Both the position numbers and the translations under genes were made by a program. From positions 23,050-87,049 of the forward strand of contig JAYRVO010000064.1 of assembly GCA_041918515.1 (NCBI GenBank): a stretch of 64,000 nucleotides of DNA, in the 5' to 3' direction. Of this stretch, positions 4,737 through 63,622 are shown piece by piece; the stretch's first letter is position 1, and every line of letters starts with the position of its first letter. Source of the DNA: Chloroflexota bacterium (GTDB lineage: Bacteria > Chloroflexota > Anaerolineae > J102). The notes under the pieces were generated by a model. That model made no database searches. It was not told the DNA's origin and saw only the letters and a program-made list of their open reading frames with translations.

Positions 4737-4815
4737 CTGGTTATTGGTAATTGGTTATTGGCGATTGACCGCCAATAACCAATTACCAATAACCAATAAC
4801 CAATAACCAATAACC
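4737..4815. repeat. CCAATAA-family heptamer hairpin (inverted ggttattgg / ccaataacc arms plus a tandem ccaataa run)
   Basis: Seen directly: ggttattggtaattggttattggcgattgaccgccaataaccaattaccaataaccaataaccaataacc, between hisB and hisH. Confidence 0.85.
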
Positions 4816-4818
4816 ACC

Positions 4819-8660: not shown

Positions 8661-8750
8661 GTTGGTTATTAGTTATTGGTTATTAGTTATTGACGTTTTC
8701 TACCAATAACCAATAACCAATAACTAATCTCCAATAACCAATCCCCAATC
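8661..8750. repeat. CCAATAA-family heptamer hairpin between GNAT and hisF
   Basis: ggttggttattagttattggttattagttattgacgttttctaccaataaccaataaccaataactaatctccaataacc. Confidence 0.85.
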
Positions 8751-8754
8751 TCCC

Positions 8755-14177: not shown

Positions 14178-14570
14178 ATGGCTCATCTCCCCATTTCTGA
14201 ACAGGAAGAGCATATCGCCAGGCATATTGTGGACGCGGCGTTTACGGTTCACCGCACGCTTGGGCCTGGTCTGCTGGAGAGCGTGTATGAAGTTTGTTTC
14301 TGCCACGAGCTTGCTAAACGAGGCCTGTCACACCAACGACAGGTTGTCGTACCGATTCTTTACGATGGCCTCTGCATCGATGATGGCCTGCGGCTCGATG
14401 TTCTTGTCGAAGAGTTGGTCATTTGCGAATTGAAAGCCGTGGAAGTGGTTCATCCTGTATTTACGGCGCAATTGCTGACCTATCTGAAACTGACCGAAAA
14501 ACGGCTGGGATTTCTCATCAACTTCAATGTGCCCTTGATCAAGCAGGGTATCCAACGCTTTGTTCTTTGA
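14178..14570 (+). CDS. GxxExxY protein (PD-(D/E)xK nuclease-like fold family)
   Basis: 131 aa. GPGLLESVYEVCFCHEL is the GxxExxY motif. Conserved ..GFLINFN C-terminus. Confidence 0.65.
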   Translation: MAHLPISEQEEHIARHIVDAAFTVHRTLGPGLLESVYEVCFCHELAKRGLSHQRQVVVPILYDGLCIDDGLRLDVLVEELVICELKAVEVVHPVFTAQLLTYLKLTEKRLGFLINFNVPLIKQGIQRFVL

Positions 14571-14940
14571 ACTTTGTGCCTTTGTGTCTTCGTGGTGAAT
14601 ATAACCACCTCCACTTTCACACCAGCCATGCTCTTCCGCTCCTTGTTCTTTGACCTTCGTGCCTTTGTGTCTTCGTGGTGAATATAACCACCTCCACTTT
14701 CACGCCAGCTATGCGCTTCCGCTCCTTGTTCTTTGACCTTCGTGCCTTTGTGTCTTCGTGGTGAATATAACCACCTCCACTTTCACGCCAGCTATGCGCT
14801 TCTGCTCCTTGTTCTTTGACCTTCGTGCCTTTGTGTCTTCGTGGTGAATATAACCACCTCCACTTTCACACCAGCTATGCGCTTCCGCTCCTTGTTCTTT
14901 GACCTTCGTGCCTTTGTGTCTTCGTGGTGGATGGAGTTTT
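14561..14940. repeat. 83-bp tandem repeat, about 4.6 copies
   Basis: The motif tgttctttga recurs at 14561, 14644, 14727, 14810 and 14893 (period 83). Unit: ..gtgcctttgtgtcttcgtggtgaatataaccacctccactttcac(g/a)ccagc(c/t)atgcgcttc(c/t)gctccttgttctttgacc. An imperfect inverted copy (cacgaagacacgaag) lies at 14130-14170. Confidence 0.9.
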
Positions 14941-14945
14941 GACTG

Positions 14946-17900
14946 ATGTATTTCCGCCTTGAACTTACCCCCCGCCGCGGCCCGGACGACGGCCGCGCCA
15001 AAGCCACCCTGGCCACTTGCCGCGCCCTCGGCCTGACCGACCTCCCCCCCGTCGTCGTCTCCGACCTCTACTTCCTCGACGCCGACTTGTCCTTGCCCGA
15101 AGTCGAAGCCCTGGCCGCCACCGCCCTCCTCGACCCCGTCGCCGCCGAGCTTGTCGTTCAGCCACAGCCACAGCCATCGTCCATCGTCCATCGTCCATCG
15201 TCCGTCGAAATCACCTTCCTCCCTGGCGTCACCGACAGCGTGGCCGACAACCTGCTGGCGGTGGCGCACAGCCTGGGCTACGAAAACGTGCGGGCGGCGG
15301 CATCCGGCTTGAGCTACAGCTTCCTCGGCGAAGTCACCCCCACTGACCTCGACCACATCGCCCGCGACCTTTTGGCGAACGGCACCGTGCAACGCTATGT
15401 GATCGGCCAGCAGATTGCGCCGCCGTTCGTGGAAACGCACGAGCTGGCCGCGGGTGAGCGTTTGGTCGAGACCATCGCCATTCGAGATCAGGGCGAAACC
15501 GGGCTGCTCGCTCTCAGCCGTGAGCGCCGCCTCAGCCTCGATCTGGCAGAGATGCAAGCGATCCAGGCGTATTTTCGCAGTGAAGGTCGCGAGCCAACCG
15601 ATGTCGAGCTGGAAACCCTGGCGCAGACCTGGTCCGAGCATTGTGTGCACAAAACGTTTCGGGCGGAGGTGGAGTACCGGAGCGAGGAGGGAGATATCCC
15701 CGCTTCTTCGCCTCCCGTTTCCTCGCCTCTCCTCATCGACGGCCTGCTGAAGACGTATATCCGGGCAGCGACGGAGGCGGTGAATAAGCCGTGGGTGCGC
15801 TCAGCGTTTGTGGACAACGCCGGCATCATCGCCTTCGACGACACGTTCGACCTGGCCTTCAAGGTGGAAACGCACAACCACCCCTCGGTGCTGGAGCCGT
15901 TCGGCGGAGCGGACACGGGTGTGGGCGGGGTCATCCGCGACATTTTGGGCGTCAGCGCCAAGCCCATCGCCAACACCGACGTGCTCTGCTTTGGGCCGGA
16001 AGACTTGCCGGATGACAAACTCCCGGCCGGGGTGCTGCACCCGCGCCGCGTCGCCGCCGGGGTCATCCACGGCATCGAAGATTACGGCAACAAGATGGGC
16101 ATCCCCACCGTGAATGGAGCCGTGCACTATCATCCCGGCTACACCGCCAACCCGCTGGTCTATTGCGGTTGCCTGGGCATTTTGCCGCGCGGCAGCCACC
16201 GTTCGTTGCACGAAGCGCAGGCTGGCGACCTCATCGTCGCCATCGGCGGGCGCACGGGGCGCGACGGGCTGCGCGGGGCCACGTTCTCCAGCATGGAAAT
16301 GGATCACACCACCGGGGCCATCGCCAGCACCGCCGTGCAGATCGGCAACCCCATCGTCGAAAAGCAAGTGATGGAGGTGATCCTGCGGGCGCGCGACGCT
16401 AGGCTGTACAACGCCATCACCGACTGCGGCGCCGGCGGATTCAGCTCGGCGGTGGGCGAGATGGGCGAGCACGTGGGCGCGAGCGTGCAGCTTCAGGGCG
16501 TTCCGCTCAAATATCCGGGCTTGCAGCCGTGGGAGATTTGGCTTTCGGAGGCGCAAGAGCGCATGGTGCTGGCCATCTCGCCAGCCCATTGGCTGGCATT
16601 CCAGCAGATTTGCCGGGCGCACGATGTCGAAGCCAGCATCCTGGGCGAGTTCGATGGCTCCGGCCGATTGCGCGTGGCCTACGGCGAGACAATCGTGGCC
16701 GATCTCGACATGCACTTCCTGCACGATGGCGTCCCCCGCCGCCGCCTCACGGCCGTTTGGTCCCCGCCCGACCTGGCCAACCCCAACCCCGCCTCCTCGC
16801 CTCCTCCCCACCTCGCCTCCTCACTCCTCCGCCTCCTCGCCTCCGCCAACATCCGTTCGCGTGCCCCCATCATCCACCGCTACGACCATGAAGTCCAGGG
16901 CGGAACGGCTGTCAAGCCGCTAGTCGGGGTCGATCAGTGCGGGCCGAGCGACGCAGCAGTCGTGATCCCCCAACCGCTCCTCGCCTCCTCTTCCCCACCC
17001 GCAACTCGCCACCCGTTTCCCGCAGCCGTTTTGTCCGCCGGCCTCAACCCCCGCTACGGCCTCATCGACCCGTATGCTATGGCCTGGGCCTGCGTGGACG
17101 AGGCTTTTCGCAATGCCGTGACTGTGGGCGCTGACCCCGACCGTATCGCCATCCTCGACAATTTTTGCTGGGGCAACCCCAATCTACCCGACCGCCTTGG
17201 CGCGCTCGTGCGCTGCGCCCAGGGCTGTTTCGATGCTGCCATCGTTTATCAAACGCCTTTCATCTCTGGCAAAGATAGCTTGAACAATGAGTACATGGGC
17301 GAGGATGGCCAGAAGCACGCCATCCCCGGAACCCTGCTCATCTCCGCCCTCGGCATTGTCCCGGATGTGACCCGCACGACCACGAGTGACCTGAAAGCGC
17401 CCGGCGATTATCTTTATCTTTTGGGCGAGACTCGCCCCGAACTCGGCGGCTCGGCCTATCTCGACCTGCTCGGCGAAATCGGCACTTCCGTCCCCCAATC
17501 CTATCCTGCCCCGCTCGACCGCCTGCGCGCTCTGCACGGGGCCATCGCCGCCGGACTCGTGCGCGCCTGCCACGACCTCAGCGAAGGCGGGCTGGCCGTG
17601 GCCCTGGCCGAAATGTGCATCGGCGGCGGTTTGGGAGCGGAAATCAACCTGTCAAGCATTCCTCCCCAATCCTCAATAACCAATACCCAATTACTTTTCT
17701 CCGAATCCCTCGGCCGCTTCCTGATCGAGGTCGAGCCTGGCCATGCGGTCGAGTTCGAAGCGATGCTGGCAGGGCAGCCCGTGGCGTCGATCGGACGGGT
17801 GACCGCCGAGAAGAATATGGTTCTTGACGCTGGAACTGAGCGCGTCGAGGTCTCGATTGCCGACCTGAATCATGCTTTCTGTGGAGAACCGGCGCCATGA
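14946..17900 (+). CDS. purL: phosphoribosylformylglycinamidine synthase subunit PurL with N-terminal PurS-like extension
   Basis: 984 aa. PurL AIR-synthase-related domains (HKTFRAEVEY, ETHNHPSVLEPFGGADTGVGGVIRD, AIGGRTGRDG). Contains several in-frame low-complexity repeat inserts. Confidence 0.85.
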   Translation: MYFRLELTPRRGPDDGRAKATLATCRALGLTDLPPVVVSDLYFLDADLSLPEVEALAATALLDPVAAELVVQPQPQPSSIVHRPSSVEITFLPGVTDSVADNLLAVAHSLGYENVRAAASGLSYSFLGEVTPTDLDHIARDLLANGTVQRYVIGQQIAPPFVETHELAAGERLVETIAIRDQGETGLLALSRERRLSLDLAEMQAIQAYFRSEGREPTDVELETLAQTWSEHCVHKTFRAEVEYRSEEGDIPASSPPVSSPLLIDGLLKTYIRAATEAVNKPWVRSAFVDNAGIIAFDDTFDLAFKVETHNHPSVLEPFGGADTGVGGVIRDILGVSAKPIANTDVLCFGPEDLPDDKLPAGVLHPRRVAAGVIHGIEDYGNKMGIPTVNGAVHYHPGYTANPLVYCGCLGILPRGSHRSLHEAQAGDLIVAIGGRTGRDGLRGATFSSMEMDHTTGAIASTAVQIGNPIVEKQVMEVILRARDARLYNAITDCGAGGFSSAVGEMGEHVGASVQLQGVPLKYPGLQPWEIWLSEAQERMVLAISPAHWLAFQQICRAHDVEASILGEFDGSGRLRVAYGETIVADLDMHFLHDGVPRRRLTAVWSPPDLANPNPASSPPPHLASSLLRLLASANIRSRAPIIHRYDHEVQGGTAVKPLVGVDQCGPSDAAVVIPQPLLASSSPPATRHPFPAAVLSAGLNPRYGLIDPYAMAWACVDEAFRNAVTVGADPDRIAILDNFCWGNPNLPDRLGALVRCAQGCFDAAIVYQTPFISGKDSLNNEYMGEDGQKHAIPGTLLISALGIVPDVTRTTTSDLKAPGDYLYLLGETRPELGGSAYLDLLGEIGTSVPQSYPAPLDRLRALHGAIAAGLVRACHDLSEGGLAVALAEMCIGGGLGAEINLSSIPPQSSITNTQLLFSESLGRFLIEVEPGHAVEFEAMLAGQPVASIGRVTAEKNMVLDAGTERVEVSIADLNHAFCGEPAP

Positions 17901-19317: not shown

Positions 19318-20136
19318 ATGCCCCCACCTCCCATCGCCATCCTCCACGCCCCCGGCACCAACCGGGATACCGACGCCGCCATCGCTTTCGAGCTGGCTGG
19401 CGGCAGCCCTGAAATCGTCCACGTCAACCAACTTCTCGCTGGCGAACGCCGCCTCGCTGACTACGCCCTGCTCGTCGTTCCCGGCGGCTTCTCGTATGGC
19501 GACGACCTGGGCGCGGGCAAACTGTGGGCCGTGCGCCTGCTGCACGATCTCGGCGAGCAGCTTCGTGCTTTTGCGGATGCGGGCAAACCCATCCTCGGCA
19601 TCTGCAACGGATTCCAGGTGCTGGTGAAGACGGGGCTGCTGCCGGGAGCAGGGGACGAAGGTGGCAAGTGGCAGGCGGCAATCTCCAATAACCAATCTCC
19701 AATAACCAATCTCCAACTCGCCACCCTCACCCGCAACGAATCCGCGCATTTCGAATGCCGATGGGTGTGGCTAGAGCCGAATGTTGCCAATCGTTCACCC
19801 TGGTTGGCCGGACTCGACCGCATCCATTGCCCGGTAGCGCATGGCGAAGGCAACTTCATGACCCGCGACGCCGCTGCACTCGATGCCATCCTGTCGCAAA
19901 ACCTCGTTGCCTTCAGCTATGTCGATGCCGATGGCCGCCCCGGCCCCTATCCGATCAACCCCAACGGCTCGGCCGCCGACATCGCCGGCGTGACGAACGC
20001 CAGCGGCAACATCCTCGGCCTGATGCCACATCCCGAAGACCATATCTTTCCCTGGCAGCACCCGGCGTTCCATCGCGGCACGGCCGGCTGTTCCGGTCTG
20101 AAACTTTTCCAGAATGGCGTCTCCATGACAAAGTGA
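19318..20136 (+). CDS. purQ: phosphoribosylformylglycinamidine synthase subunit PurQ (glutamine amidotransferase)
   Basis: IAILHAPGTNRD, GGFSYGDD, GICNGFQVL (Cys) and HPE motifs. Contains an in-frame ccaataacc/ccaatctcc insert ([17 protein letters not shown]). Confidence 0.85.
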   Translation: MPPPPIAILHAPGTNRDTDAAIAFELAGGSPEIVHVNQLLAGERRLADYALLVVPGGFSYGDDLGAGKLWAVRLLHDLGEQLRAFADAGKPILGICNGFQVLVKTGLLPGAGDEGGKWQAAISNNQSPITNLQLATLTRNESAHFECRWVWLEPNVANRSPWLAGLDRIHCPVAHGEGNFMTRDAAALDAILSQNLVAFSYVDADGRPGPYPINPNGSAADIAGVTNASGNILGLMPHPEDHIFPWQHPAFHRGTAGCSGLKLFQNGVSMTK

Positions 20137-34501: not shown

Positions 34502-34582
34502 GTAGAGATTAGAGATTAGAGATTGCAATCTCCAATCTCTAATCTCTAATCCCCAATAACCAATCTCCAATAACCAATAACC
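34502..34582. repeat. GAGATTA / CCAATAA heptamer hairpin
   Basis: gtagagattagagattagagattgcaatctccaatctctaatctctaatccccaataaccaatctccaataaccaataacc. Confidence 0.85.
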
Positions 34583-34585
34583 ACC

Positions 34586-60034: not shown

Positions 60035-60180
60035 GTCAAGGTGACAGGGTGACAAGGTGGCAGGGTGACAAGGTGGCAGGGTGACAGGGTGACAGGGTGA
60101 CAAGGTGACAAGGTGACAGGGTGACAAGGTGACAAGGTGACAAGGTGACAAGGTGATAAGGTGATGGGGTGACAAATCAT
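60035..60180. repeat. GGTGACAA/GGTGACAG octamer array (about 17 units)
   Basis: caaggtgacagggtgacaaggtggcagggtgacaaggtg...gtgacaaggtgataaggtgatggggtgacaaatc. Confidence 0.9.
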
Positions 60181-60204: not shown

Positions 60205-60548
60205 AAGGTTTTCCCTATCTGCGTCCACAGATTGACCACACGCAGAGCAATTCCAAATTTGTGGACGCGGATGGAAGGAACACAGATTTTTGACCAAGAA
60301 CTATCCGCGTTTCCCTATCCGCGTCCACAGATTGACCACACGCAGAGCAATTCCAAATTTGTGGACGCGGATGGAAGGAACACAGATTTTTGACCAAGAA
60401 CTATCCGCGTTTTCCTATCCGCGTCCACAGATTGACCACACGCAGAGCAATTCCAAATTTGTGGACGCGGATGGAAGGAACACGGATTTTTGACCAAGAA
60501 CTATCCGCGTTTCCCTATCCGCGTCCACAGATTGACCACACGCAGAGC
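60205..60548. repeat. 100-bp tandem repeat, about 3.4 copies, each with an internal 12-bp inverted repeat (atccgcgtccaca / tgtggacgcggat)
   Basis: The motif gcgtccacag recurs at 60221, 60321, 60421 and 60521. Unit identity is above 97%. The array abuts the glmS stop codon. Confidence 0.9.
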
Positions 60549-60549
60549 C

Positions 60550-62397
<1,848 letters not shown>

Positions 62398-62439
62398 AGC
62401 GTTTCTCCGTTGGTAAAAGTGGATGGTGAGGAGGCCACA

Positions 62440-62662
62440 GCCTGACCGCCGCGGGCGCGCGTTCGCAGCATCCCGCTCGAGCAGGCAACGTTGGTACTGG
62501 GAGAAGAGACGTCCGGGTGTGGCTTCCCGGGGAGGCATCCGCCGATCTTTCGCTTTTCCCCGCTGGGACGATCCCAGGGGTTGGCTCACACGCGTGTGTG
62601 AGAACCTCCACCTCGTCTACTGCGCCCGCCTCAGGCGAGTTCGTCGCAGCACTGGCGCTTCG
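62440..62662 (-). ncRNA. glmS ribozyme (GlcN6P-responsive self-cleaving riboswitch) in glmS 5' UTR
   Basis: The minus strand reads AAGCGCCAGUG..UAGACGAGGUGGAGGUU..AUCGGCGGAUGCCUCCCCGGGAAGCC. It matches the conserved glmS core blocks AGCGCCAG, GACGAGG(A/U)GGAGGUU and CGGCGGAUGCCUCCCGG in the correct order. It lies immediately upstream of glmS. Confidence 0.75.
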
Positions 62663-62893
62663 TCTGCTCCACTGGTTCGATTCATCAAGATATAGGCGTC
62701 TCCTAAACGTGAAACAGCCTGCCCTGAGTGCGTTGTACTCAACGCCGTCGAAGGGTGAGGCGTGAAAATTTCCGATGTTTTCTCGCGTCTCACGAGCGAT
62801 GAAGGCGATTATACTTCCGAGCCGCCGTCGGGGGCAAAGAACGGCGGCTGACCATGACCGAATCCCATTTTCGCCTGCCATCATCACCAGGTC

Positions 62894-63622
62894 TCATACG
62901 TAATGCACCCAATCGGGCGTGGCCGCCGGCGGAGTGTACACCCCGCGCATCGTCGCTGGCAGCAGTCCGGCCAATTCCTGCATGGCGAAATCAGTGACAA
63001 CGGCCTCGGCCTCCCGCCGCGGCAACCCGGCCGGCATCTCCACGCGATACGGTCTCCCCCACCGCATGGCAATGGGCGTCCGTCGACCGCGTTTCAAGGT
63101 GACAGGAAAGTCCTCCGTGCCCCACACAGCCACCGGCAACAACACAGCCGGTGTGCGCCGCACCAGGAAGGCCATCCCCCGTCGGCCCATTTGCAGCGAA
63201 AAATCGACCTGATTGCGCGTGCCTTCCGGCGCGATCAACAGCGCGTGGCCATGCTCCAACACCTGTTGACTGGCCCGCAGCGCGTCCACATCGGCCTGGC
63301 CGCGCGCCACGAGGATGACGCCGAAGCTGGGGATGAAGCGACCGATGAACGGGATGTCGATGGACTCCTGCTTGCCCAGGGGCGCTGTGTAGCGCAGATG
63401 GTACAGGCTGGCCATGATCACAGCGGGATCGGTATAGTGGATGTGGTTGTAATAGATGATCAGCGGCCCTGTCCGCGGCACTCGCTCGCGTCCCTCCTCT
63501 TCGATGCGCATGAGCAGGTGCACCAGCCGATACAAGGTAAAGAACCAAAAGCGCCGGCTGAACCGCCGGGTGACGATTTCGGGGTGAACGGCGTCGAAAG
63601 GACTGTAGGTCGAGTCAGTCAT
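62894..63622 (-). CDS. plsC: 1-acyl-sn-glycerol-3-phosphate acyltransferase
   Basis: NHIHYTDP (HxxxxD) and APEGTR motifs. Confidence 0.8.
   Translation of the reverse strand: MTDSTYSPFDAVHPEIVTRRFSRRFWFFTLYRLVHLLMRIEEEGRERVPRTGPLIIYYNHIHYTDPAVIMASLYHLRYTAPLGKQESIDIPFIGRFIPSFGVILVARGQADVDALRASQQVLEHGHALLIAPEGTRNQVDFSLQMGRRGMAFLVRRTPAVLLPVAVWGTEDFPVTLKRGRRTPIAMRWGRPYRVEMPAGLPRREAEAVVTDFAMQELAGLLPATMRGVYTPPAATPDWVHYV

Follow-up and report, generated by a model that had tools for sequence, protein, structure and literature searches.

In a Caldilineales-type genome of the Chloroflexota, the glmS 5' UTR very probably contains a cis-acting glmS ribozyme-riboswitch, whose features were mapped within the 64,000-nucleotide stretch of DNA analysed here, called the window throughout (Table 1). 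Read on the minus strand, the leader runs as GAGCAGACGA A↓GCGCCAG (the arrow marking the predicted cleavage position), a hairpin, GACGAGG UGGAGG UU, 52 nt, CGAAAGAUC GGCGGAUG CCUCC CCGGG and onward, such that the element from 62659 to 62434 lies ~262 to 37 nt 5' of the ATG at 62397, in the glmS 5' UTR and on the same strand as the gene, an arrangement that recurs at 60 related loci. The initial annotation had called a glmS ribozyme in front of glmS, and this call is borne out by the presence on the minus strand of the motifs it quoted, by RF00234 being the single Rfam family matched and by a 74.3-bit match to an independent covariance model. The span that it gave stands in part: re-read from the minus strand, the core and pseudoknot words do follow one another in the order described (A62660 A62659↓G62658 CGCCAG, then UAGACGAGGUGGAGGUUCUC at 62620-62601, then AUCGGCGGAUGCCUCCCCGGG at 62546-62526), while the distance of 60-260 nt upstream of the start codon becomes ~37-262 nt and the element continues past 62440 to 62434.

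Table 1 Features of the glmS leader and its surroundings in the window.
Feature	Position	Strand	Basis or remark
Promoter-like TTGCCC-18-TATAAT	62808..62837	-	Consensus scan only; weak evidence
Whole glmS ribozyme, A-1 to P3.1 3' strand	62434..62659	-	RF00234 alignment, R1 model match, segment parse
Predicted self-cleavage site, A-1 (62659) / G1 (62658)	62658..62659	-	A↓GCGCC aligned to RF00234 consensus 'aAGCGCC'
P2.2 5' strand, C2 G3 C4 C5	62654..62657	-	4/4 Watson-Crick with GGCG 62543-62540
P1 hairpin, basal UGCUGCG/CGCAGUA, 20-nt interior with inner CUCGCC-UGA-GGCGGG stem	62618..62651	-	7/7 basal pairs
J1/2 core strand GACGAGG	62611..62617	-	Invariant in 42/42 aligned leaders
P2 5' strand GGAGG	62605..62609	-	5/5 with CCUCC 62535-62531
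Insert hairpin 1, CUCACAC-ACGC-GUGUGAG	62585..62602	-	7-bp stem; outside canonical glmS ribozyme; insertion in Rfam alignment
Joiner CCAA (62584-62581) and insert hairpin 2, CCCCUGGGA-UCG-UCCCAGCGGGG (62580-62558)	62558..62584	-	Basal pairs covary
AAAAGCGAAAGAUC: A-rich joiner, P2.1 3' strand (C62552, G62551), small loop	62544..62557	-	Aligns to relatives' conserved AAAAUCGAAAGAUC
GGCG (P2.2 3' strand) and GAUG core	62536..62543	-	G(G/A)CGGAUGCC motif nearly invariant
P2 3' strand CCUCC	62531..62535	-	Pairs with GGAGG 62605-62609
P3 hairpin CCGGG-AAGCCACA-CCCGG	62513..62530	-	5/5 pairs, all 5 covary
P4-like hairpin GCCUG..CAGGC, almost continuous 47-nt stem, GAAC loop	62440..62486	-	Fold
P3.1 3' strand UGUGGC, directly 3' of P4-like hairpin	62434..62439	-	6/6 with GCCACA, canonical position
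glmS CDS, 615 aa, MCGIVG...	60550..62397	-	Translation

Genomic context of the leader

On the minus strand, the genes run from cmk, which the window end truncates, through an acyltransferase gene (62894-63622), a leader of 496 nt and glmS itself to a spacer full of repeats, dtd, a gene for a sulfatase and an rsmI-like gene, and the acyltransferase-glmS pairing is also found in the related loci L164, L166, L167 and L171. The window GlmS is 100% identical to P0001, contains Pfam GATase_6/7 and SIS domains and is preceded by a Shine-Dalgarno GGAG at 62409-62406. An overlong GTG reading frame (60550-62589, 679 aa) overlaps part of the ribozyme, and the database annotation of GlmS P0004 (643 aa) includes an N-terminal extension of 28 codons (L161:901-984) that reaches into its leader, with the conserved MCGIVG at 985. 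Upstream, the promoter-like sequence gives weak evidence for a start that would put ~140 nt of leader ahead of the cleavage site.

Repetitive DNA is found in the glmS-dtd spacer and in other parts of the window. A 100-nt tandem unit (60210-60548, 3.4 copies, 98% identical) begins 2 nt past the glmS stop, each unit carrying a 12-nt inverted repeat, GTGGACGCGGAT ... ATCCGCGTCCAC, on the minus strand; a CRISPR identity for this array was dismissed because the entire unit repeats, rather than short repeats with unique spacers. Adjoining it is an 8-nt tandem repeat, CAAGGTGA on the plus strand (60037-60175, 17.4 copies, 86% match), and an 83-nt tandem repeat (14560-14929, 4.5 copies, 97% identical) lies just upstream of a purL-like ORF (14946-17900). 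Heptamer-type tandem arrays (CCAATAA, ACCAATA, CAATCTCCAATAAC) occupy window spacers at 4772-4816, 8702-8753, 19679-19716 and 34526-34583. Similar arrays (CAGTAAT, CCAATAT, ACGTAAA) fill the P1 loop and downstream leader of the relative L163 (L163:430-900), and the P1 of the glmS ribozyme therefore tolerates a 110-nt repeat insertion. Two other RNA matches were seen at related loci: a 6S RNA (RF00013, 53.6 bits) directly 3' of glmS in one Anaerolineae relative (L029:4381-4558), and a partial T-box match (RF00230, 60.2 bits, gathering 93) upstream of the glmS leader on a close-clade contig (L170:1-140, minus strand), where the locus end cuts the match.

Predicted cleavage site and catalytic core

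Does the leader contain the parts from which a glmS ribozyme is built? The family's cleavage motif, A↓GCGCC with NG and then P1 after it, is present as A62659↓G62658 CGCCAG, and the A-GCGC context is unchanged in all 42 aligned leaders. The self-cleavage site proposed in the initial annotation, between 62659 and 62658, coincides with the A↓G step of AGCGCC that is the family cleavage position in the RF00234 consensus alignment. An inability of P1 or P2.1 to pair had been named there as a result that would speak against the ribozyme; inspection of the helices reveals that both can form, P1 with 7/7 pairs and P2.1 as CG/CG.

All seven P1 pairs have changed on both sides among relatives, and in L081 the P1 sequence is wholly unlike that of the window and still forms the hairpin. 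P2 covaries at 3/5 pairs (for example GACGG/CCGUC, GGCGG/CCGCC and GAAGG/CCUUC), is paired in 98.1% of cells and encloses the 3' strands of P2.1 and P2.2, as the family requires. A competing pairing of the P2 5' strand with CCUCCUCACC (62433-62424), proposed by the minimum free energy (MFE) fold, is absent from L081 and was dismissed. The two pairs of P2.1, C62615-G62551 and G62614-C62552, are able to form in 41/42 leaders and never vary, and we infer that they correspond to the P2.1 pairs framing the ligand site. A U-to-G change directly before the P2.1 CG is common to the window, L162-L165, L167 and L171.

In P2.2, three pairs are invariant across the 42 leaders, and the fifth position is C-G in 12, U-A in 1 and A.A in 29. 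Most distant Chloroflexota leaders (L001-L041, L082-L093) read AGCGCA...AGCGG, with A.A at this position. U-A at the fifth position was noted in a few distant leaders (L001, L033, L036), the P2.2 of L036 being GCGUU/AACG. The fifth position thus shows correlated change on both strands that is mostly non-Watson-Crick, with C-G in Firmicutes and in the window clade. As far as can be read from the alignment, the invariance of P2.1 and of three P2.2 pairs means that the comparative data neither support nor contradict these pairings.

By position mapping, G62611, the last residue of the J1/2 strand, would be the active-site guanine (G42 in B. subtilis, G40 in T. tengcongensis), and G62539 and A62538 would be equivalent to B. 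subtilis G67 and A68. In the characterised RNAs, these are the active-site guanine and the residues next to A-1 and the cofactor, respectively (PMC11602151).

Rfam score and its shortfall

At gathering thresholds, an Rfam scan of the whole 64-kb window returned no match. A permissive scan of 62300-62900 gave RF00234 as the sole family, aligned over its full length (model 1-167) with 24.1 bits and E=0.0013 (601 nt). The initial annotation had proposed exactly this comparison and held that a score under the gathering threshold would argue against the ribozyme, and formally that is the outcome, 24.1 versus 37 bits. The gathering score of 37 bits is an operational detection cut-off and not a structural feature; it is tuned to canonical members, and we consider that a sub-threshold score does not unseat the glmS identity.

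Where are the bits lost? The RF00234 alignment places 16 nt in the P1 loop versus 8 in the model, 56 nt inside P2 versus 8, and 16 nt in the P4/P4.1 region versus 50. The window scores low because its P4 is non-canonical and because it carries a two-hairpin insert in P2 that is typical of its clade. Among close-clade leaders, those with canonical P4 score 60.5, 59.0, 46.1, 45.1, 42.5, 33.4 and 31.3 bits (5/7 pass gathering), and those with reduced P4 score 26.1, 26.0, 25.7, 25.6, 24.1 (the window), 23.1 and 20.4 bits. The scores thus split by P4 type: the shortfall comes from the accessory domain, and the window element is an orthologue of elements admitted by the curated RF00234 model.

Covariation among relatives and an independent model

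Related loci were gathered by GlmS protein similarity, blind to ribozyme presence. The nearest reference genomes by this measure are Chloroflexota MAGs (Anaerolineae, Caldilineaceae, Aggregatilineales) with 58-65% GlmS identity, followed by Acidobacteriota with 52-57%. A metagenome scan yielded L081, with 82% GlmS identity, and about 50 database GlmS proteins are 72-84% identical, Caldilineales or Caldilineae where labelled, the leaders of twelve of which were fetched. The element is present in all 14 close-clade leaders (GlmS 73-84% identical), and 20/40 scanned Chloroflexota leaders pass RF00234 gathering with 39-73 bits, some of them with the same insert as the window.

Nearly all Chloroflexota leaders share one layout. 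Its 5' half reads A↓GCGC(A/C/U)NG, P1, GACGAGG, N, the P2 5' strand and UU; the insert follows as hairpin 1 (usually 7 bp), (C/U)(U/C)AA and hairpin 2 of variable length; and the 3' half reads (G)AAAA(U/G)CGA NNNN UC, (A/G)GCG GAUG, the P2 3' strand, P3, J3/4, the P4 domain and the P3.1 3' strand. Pairs were counted over 42 equal-length sequences in which helices were placed in register from the invariant anchors and loop interiors were dropped. A plain MAFFT alignment of the full-length relatives misaligned the variable loops and misplaced the L005 5' end, and was not used.

For the full pseudoknotted structure, 95.8% of 1,594 cells pair; sliding the 3' partners by 1-3 columns lowers this share to 34-43%, and shuffles give 68.9%. 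Changes on both sides are seen at 31/38 pairs, distributed as 7/7 in P1, 3/5 in P2, 6/6 in insert hairpin 1, 4/4 in insert hairpin 2, 5/5 in P3 and 5/5 in P3.1, these counts being somewhat inflated because hairpins 1 and 2 and P3 were put in register by maximising pairing, and the 42 sequences being phylogenetically related. The covariation score is 0.692 versus 0.174 in shuffled data, and 0/500 shuffles reach any observed measure.

A covariance model, R1, was built from the core, insert and P3 (129 positions, 27 pairs) and trained on 13 distant insert-bearing relatives that pass RF00234 gathering, with the window and its close clade left out. Applied to both strands of the 64 kb, R1 finds 62668-62508 on the minus strand with 74.3 bits and E=8.6e-19, and the runner-up reaches 13.3 bits. 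Across 172 loci, it gives one match (37-97 bits) in each of 60, on the glmS strand and shortly upstream of glmS, together with a single truncated fragment, and no match at Acidobacteriota-type glmS loci.

These data bear on the notion that the leader is a GC-rich sequence with glmS-like words by chance and no ribozyme at all. The sub-threshold Rfam score could be taken in its favour, as could the MFE of the leader, which is no better than that of shuffles (z=0.02); MFE z-scores near 0 are uninformative here, given the pseudoknots and the high GC content. Against it stand the R1 score, the same element at the same locus in 60 relatives and the strong covariation, by which we rule chance resemblance out, its probability being next to nil.

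Is the glmS ribozyme of the window also maintained? When the window is compared with 12 clade members, identity is 89% in the unpaired columns of the core and 57% at four-fold synonymous glmS sites, and by this measure the comparison shows the core to be under purifying selection.

The two-hairpin insert in P2

The window carries a 52-nt module of two hairpins that separates the 5' strand of P2 from the 3' strand of P2.1, and such an insert within P2 is typical of Chloroflexota glmS ribozymes. Neither this module nor the non-canonical P4 figured in the initial annotation. All six counted pairs of hairpin 1 covary over the 42 leaders, and L081 (CUUCCAC/GUGGAAG) differs from the window by two compensatory pairs. 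The (C/U)(U/C)AA joiner is near-universal among relatives, and all four basal pairs of hairpin 2 covary, with the length of that hairpin differing from one relative to another. A few leaders carry less: L029, L036 and L001 have the compact canonical linker UUAUCGAA, and L028, L084 and L085 have a single hairpin.

P3, P3.1 and the P4 accessory domain

The literature divides the glmS ribozyme into a catalytic core (P1, P2, P2.1, P2.2) and accessory helices (P3, P3.1, P4, P4.1). In the window, the P3 loop GCCACA (62523-62518) forms the 5' strand of P3.1, which covaries among relatives (GUCAC/GUGAC, AUCAC/GUGAU, UCCAC/GUGGA); a complement search served to place the P3.1 partner, and the pair count is biased accordingly. 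No convincing partner was found in L081 and L161, and the GCCAC P3 loop is also missing there.

The P4-like hairpin of the window is without the A-rich internal loop (IL4) and the GNRA L4 that characterise the P4/P4.1 accessory domain, and its stability is no better than that of shuffles (z=0.25). The canonical IL4/GNRA pattern occurs in ~42/44 distant leaders, as called by a relaxed pattern detector with inspection by eye, and is missing from the window and six other close-clade leaders. Within the close clade, P4 is canonical in L164, L166 and L168-L172, its internal loop being A-rich and P4.1 being capped by GNRA. In L162, L163, L165 and L167, a plain hairpin of only 20-25 nt precedes P3.1, compared with 47 nt in the window, and the P4 domains of L081 and L161 differ again from both forms.

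We treat P4 as non-defining because the literature calls the domain non-essential for activity; specifically, it is dispensable for ligand-induced cleavage (PMC1635283). The accessory domain is, at the same time, required for activity at physiological Mg2+ (PMC1635283). In the B. subtilis RNA, the IL4 purine stack packs on P2.1, IL4 and L4 lend stability to P2.1 and to the pocket for the ligand, and a single mutation in IL4 can leave the core caught in inactive folds (PMC11602151). Given this stacking and these misfolding mutants, a reduced efficiency of the window ribozyme, lacking IL4, is possible.

A stronger version of this argument would regard the element as a decaying or altered relic that cleaves inefficiently at physiological Mg2+ or without ligand control, and hence does not act as a GlcN6P switch. 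The loss of IL4 and GNRA from P4, the misfolding of B. subtilis IL4 point mutants (PMC11602151) and the need for the accessory domain at physiological Mg2+ (PMC1635283) all speak for it. However, the core is conserved well beyond neutral sites, compensatory changes separate the window from even its nearest relative in hairpin 1 and P1, P3 and P3.1 are kept at their correct positions, and the core is intact in all seven P4-reduced leaders, which is not expected of a relic. We consider a relic very unlikely.

If the ribozyme functions without IL4, what supports its core? One hypothesis is that catalysis is the same and the periphery has been re-wired, such that the insert and its A-rich joiners took over from P4/IL4 the buttressing of P2.1 and the ligand pocket and thereby let P4 decay. 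Consistent with this, the insert is constant and covaries in both hairpins, conserved A-rich joiners (CUAA, GAAAA) flank it, and P4 reduction is confined to insert-bearing leaders and to this clade (7/14, versus ~2/44 distant leaders), a correlative observation. Most insert-bearing leaders nevertheless retain a fully canonical P4, for which reason the insert is no general P4 substitute, and hairpin 1 of the window is without a GNRA cap, so that one obvious docking device is gone. On balance, such a replacement is rather doubtful, although it has more to recommend it than a relic does.

Proposed mechanism

A glmS ribozyme-riboswitch is our preferred reading, and we propose how it would act. The leader transcript would fold into the double-pseudoknotted canonical core of P1, P2, P2.1 and P2.2, which by homology would bind glucosamine-6-phosphate (GlcN6P) in a preformed pocket and use it as a cofactor. 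Cleavage would take place between A62659 and G62658, produce a 2',3'-cyclic phosphate end and leave a glmS mRNA with a 5'-OH, which would then be degraded, such that abundant GlcN6P would lower GlmS synthesis in a negative feedback. In Bacillus, the corresponding 5'-OH glmS product is degraded by RNase J1. That the window RNA depends on the ligand, cleaves by this chemistry and has its product decay is what we infer by analogy with the family, the GlcN6P cofactor mechanism and the downstream feedback being drawn from its literature (PMC11602151, PMC5473149). Our literature searches on glmS ribozymes in Chloroflexi/Chloroflexota found no experimental data, and neither the Chloroflexota insert nor P4-reduced forms were described in the searchable texts.

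Implications

The Rfam gathering threshold misses the window element, ~40% of the Chloroflexota glmS ribozymes found here (15/35 model-positive GTDB loci) and all P4-reduced ones, and pipelines that rely on curated thresholds therefore under-report glmS riboswitch regulation in Chloroflexota. A clade-aware model, on the other hand, parts matches (37-97 bits) cleanly from background. The window element leaves the known mechanism of the glmS ribozyme unchanged and would add Caldilineales-type bacteria to those in which GlcN6P exerts feedback on the synthesis of cell-wall precursors. The Chloroflexota leaders also offer a natural series of peripheries around a fixed core, in which the insert has 0, 1 or 2 hairpins and the P4 domain is canonical, short or divergent; if replacement of the periphery were true, they would provide a natural case of peripheral-domain replacement around an unchanged catalytic core.

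Comparison with known glmS ribozymes

The canonical architecture of the glmS ribozyme (PMC11602151, PMC1635283) is that of the Firmicutes members of RF00234 (B. subtilis, B. anthracis, Thermoanaerobacter tengcongensis), and the window shares with them the site in the glmS 5' UTR, the A↓GCGCC motif, a P1 that directly abuts AGCGCCNG and GACGAGG, the strand GACGAGG carrying the active-site G, P2, the P2.1/P2.2 double pseudoknot, GGCGGAUGCC, P3 and P3.1. It differs from them as follows: a 52-nt two-hairpin insert stands where the canonical RNA has the 4-nt linker UUAU between P2 and P2.1, a near-continuous hairpin without A-rich IL4 or GNRA L4 stands in place of P4/P4.1, U replaces A after GACGAGG, and G replaces U before the P2.1 CG.

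Also comparable are insert-bearing Chloroflexota elements from Anaerolineae and Caldilineae MAGs that score above gathering, such as L005 (63.6 bits), L169 (60.5 bits) and L166 (59.0 bits). Leaders of this type share the core of the window, the insert site, the (C/U)UAA and GAAAA joiners and P3/P3.1, but retain a canonical P4 (ACAAA...GNRA...GACAA) that the window lacks. Most distant insert-bearing Chloroflexota also read AGCGCA...AGCGG, whereas the window clade has the canonical AGCGCC...GGCGG. A further group comprises the P4-reduced leaders of the same clade (L162, L163, L165, L167, L081, L161), which like the window combine a canonical core and insert with the loss of IL4 and GNRA and score 20-26 bits.

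Beyond this phylum, McCown, Roth and Breaker (2011) reportedly described rare structural variants of the glmS ribozyme in Deinococcus-Thermus whose catalytic core carries additional stems and whose core-supporting substructures are altered. These variants would show the same kind of deviation in a different phylum, so that departures of this sort have, in principle, a precedent. Taken with these systems, the window element is homologous to the glmS ribozyme family and would work like it, departing from it only in the Rfam cut-off and in the accessory features of P4.
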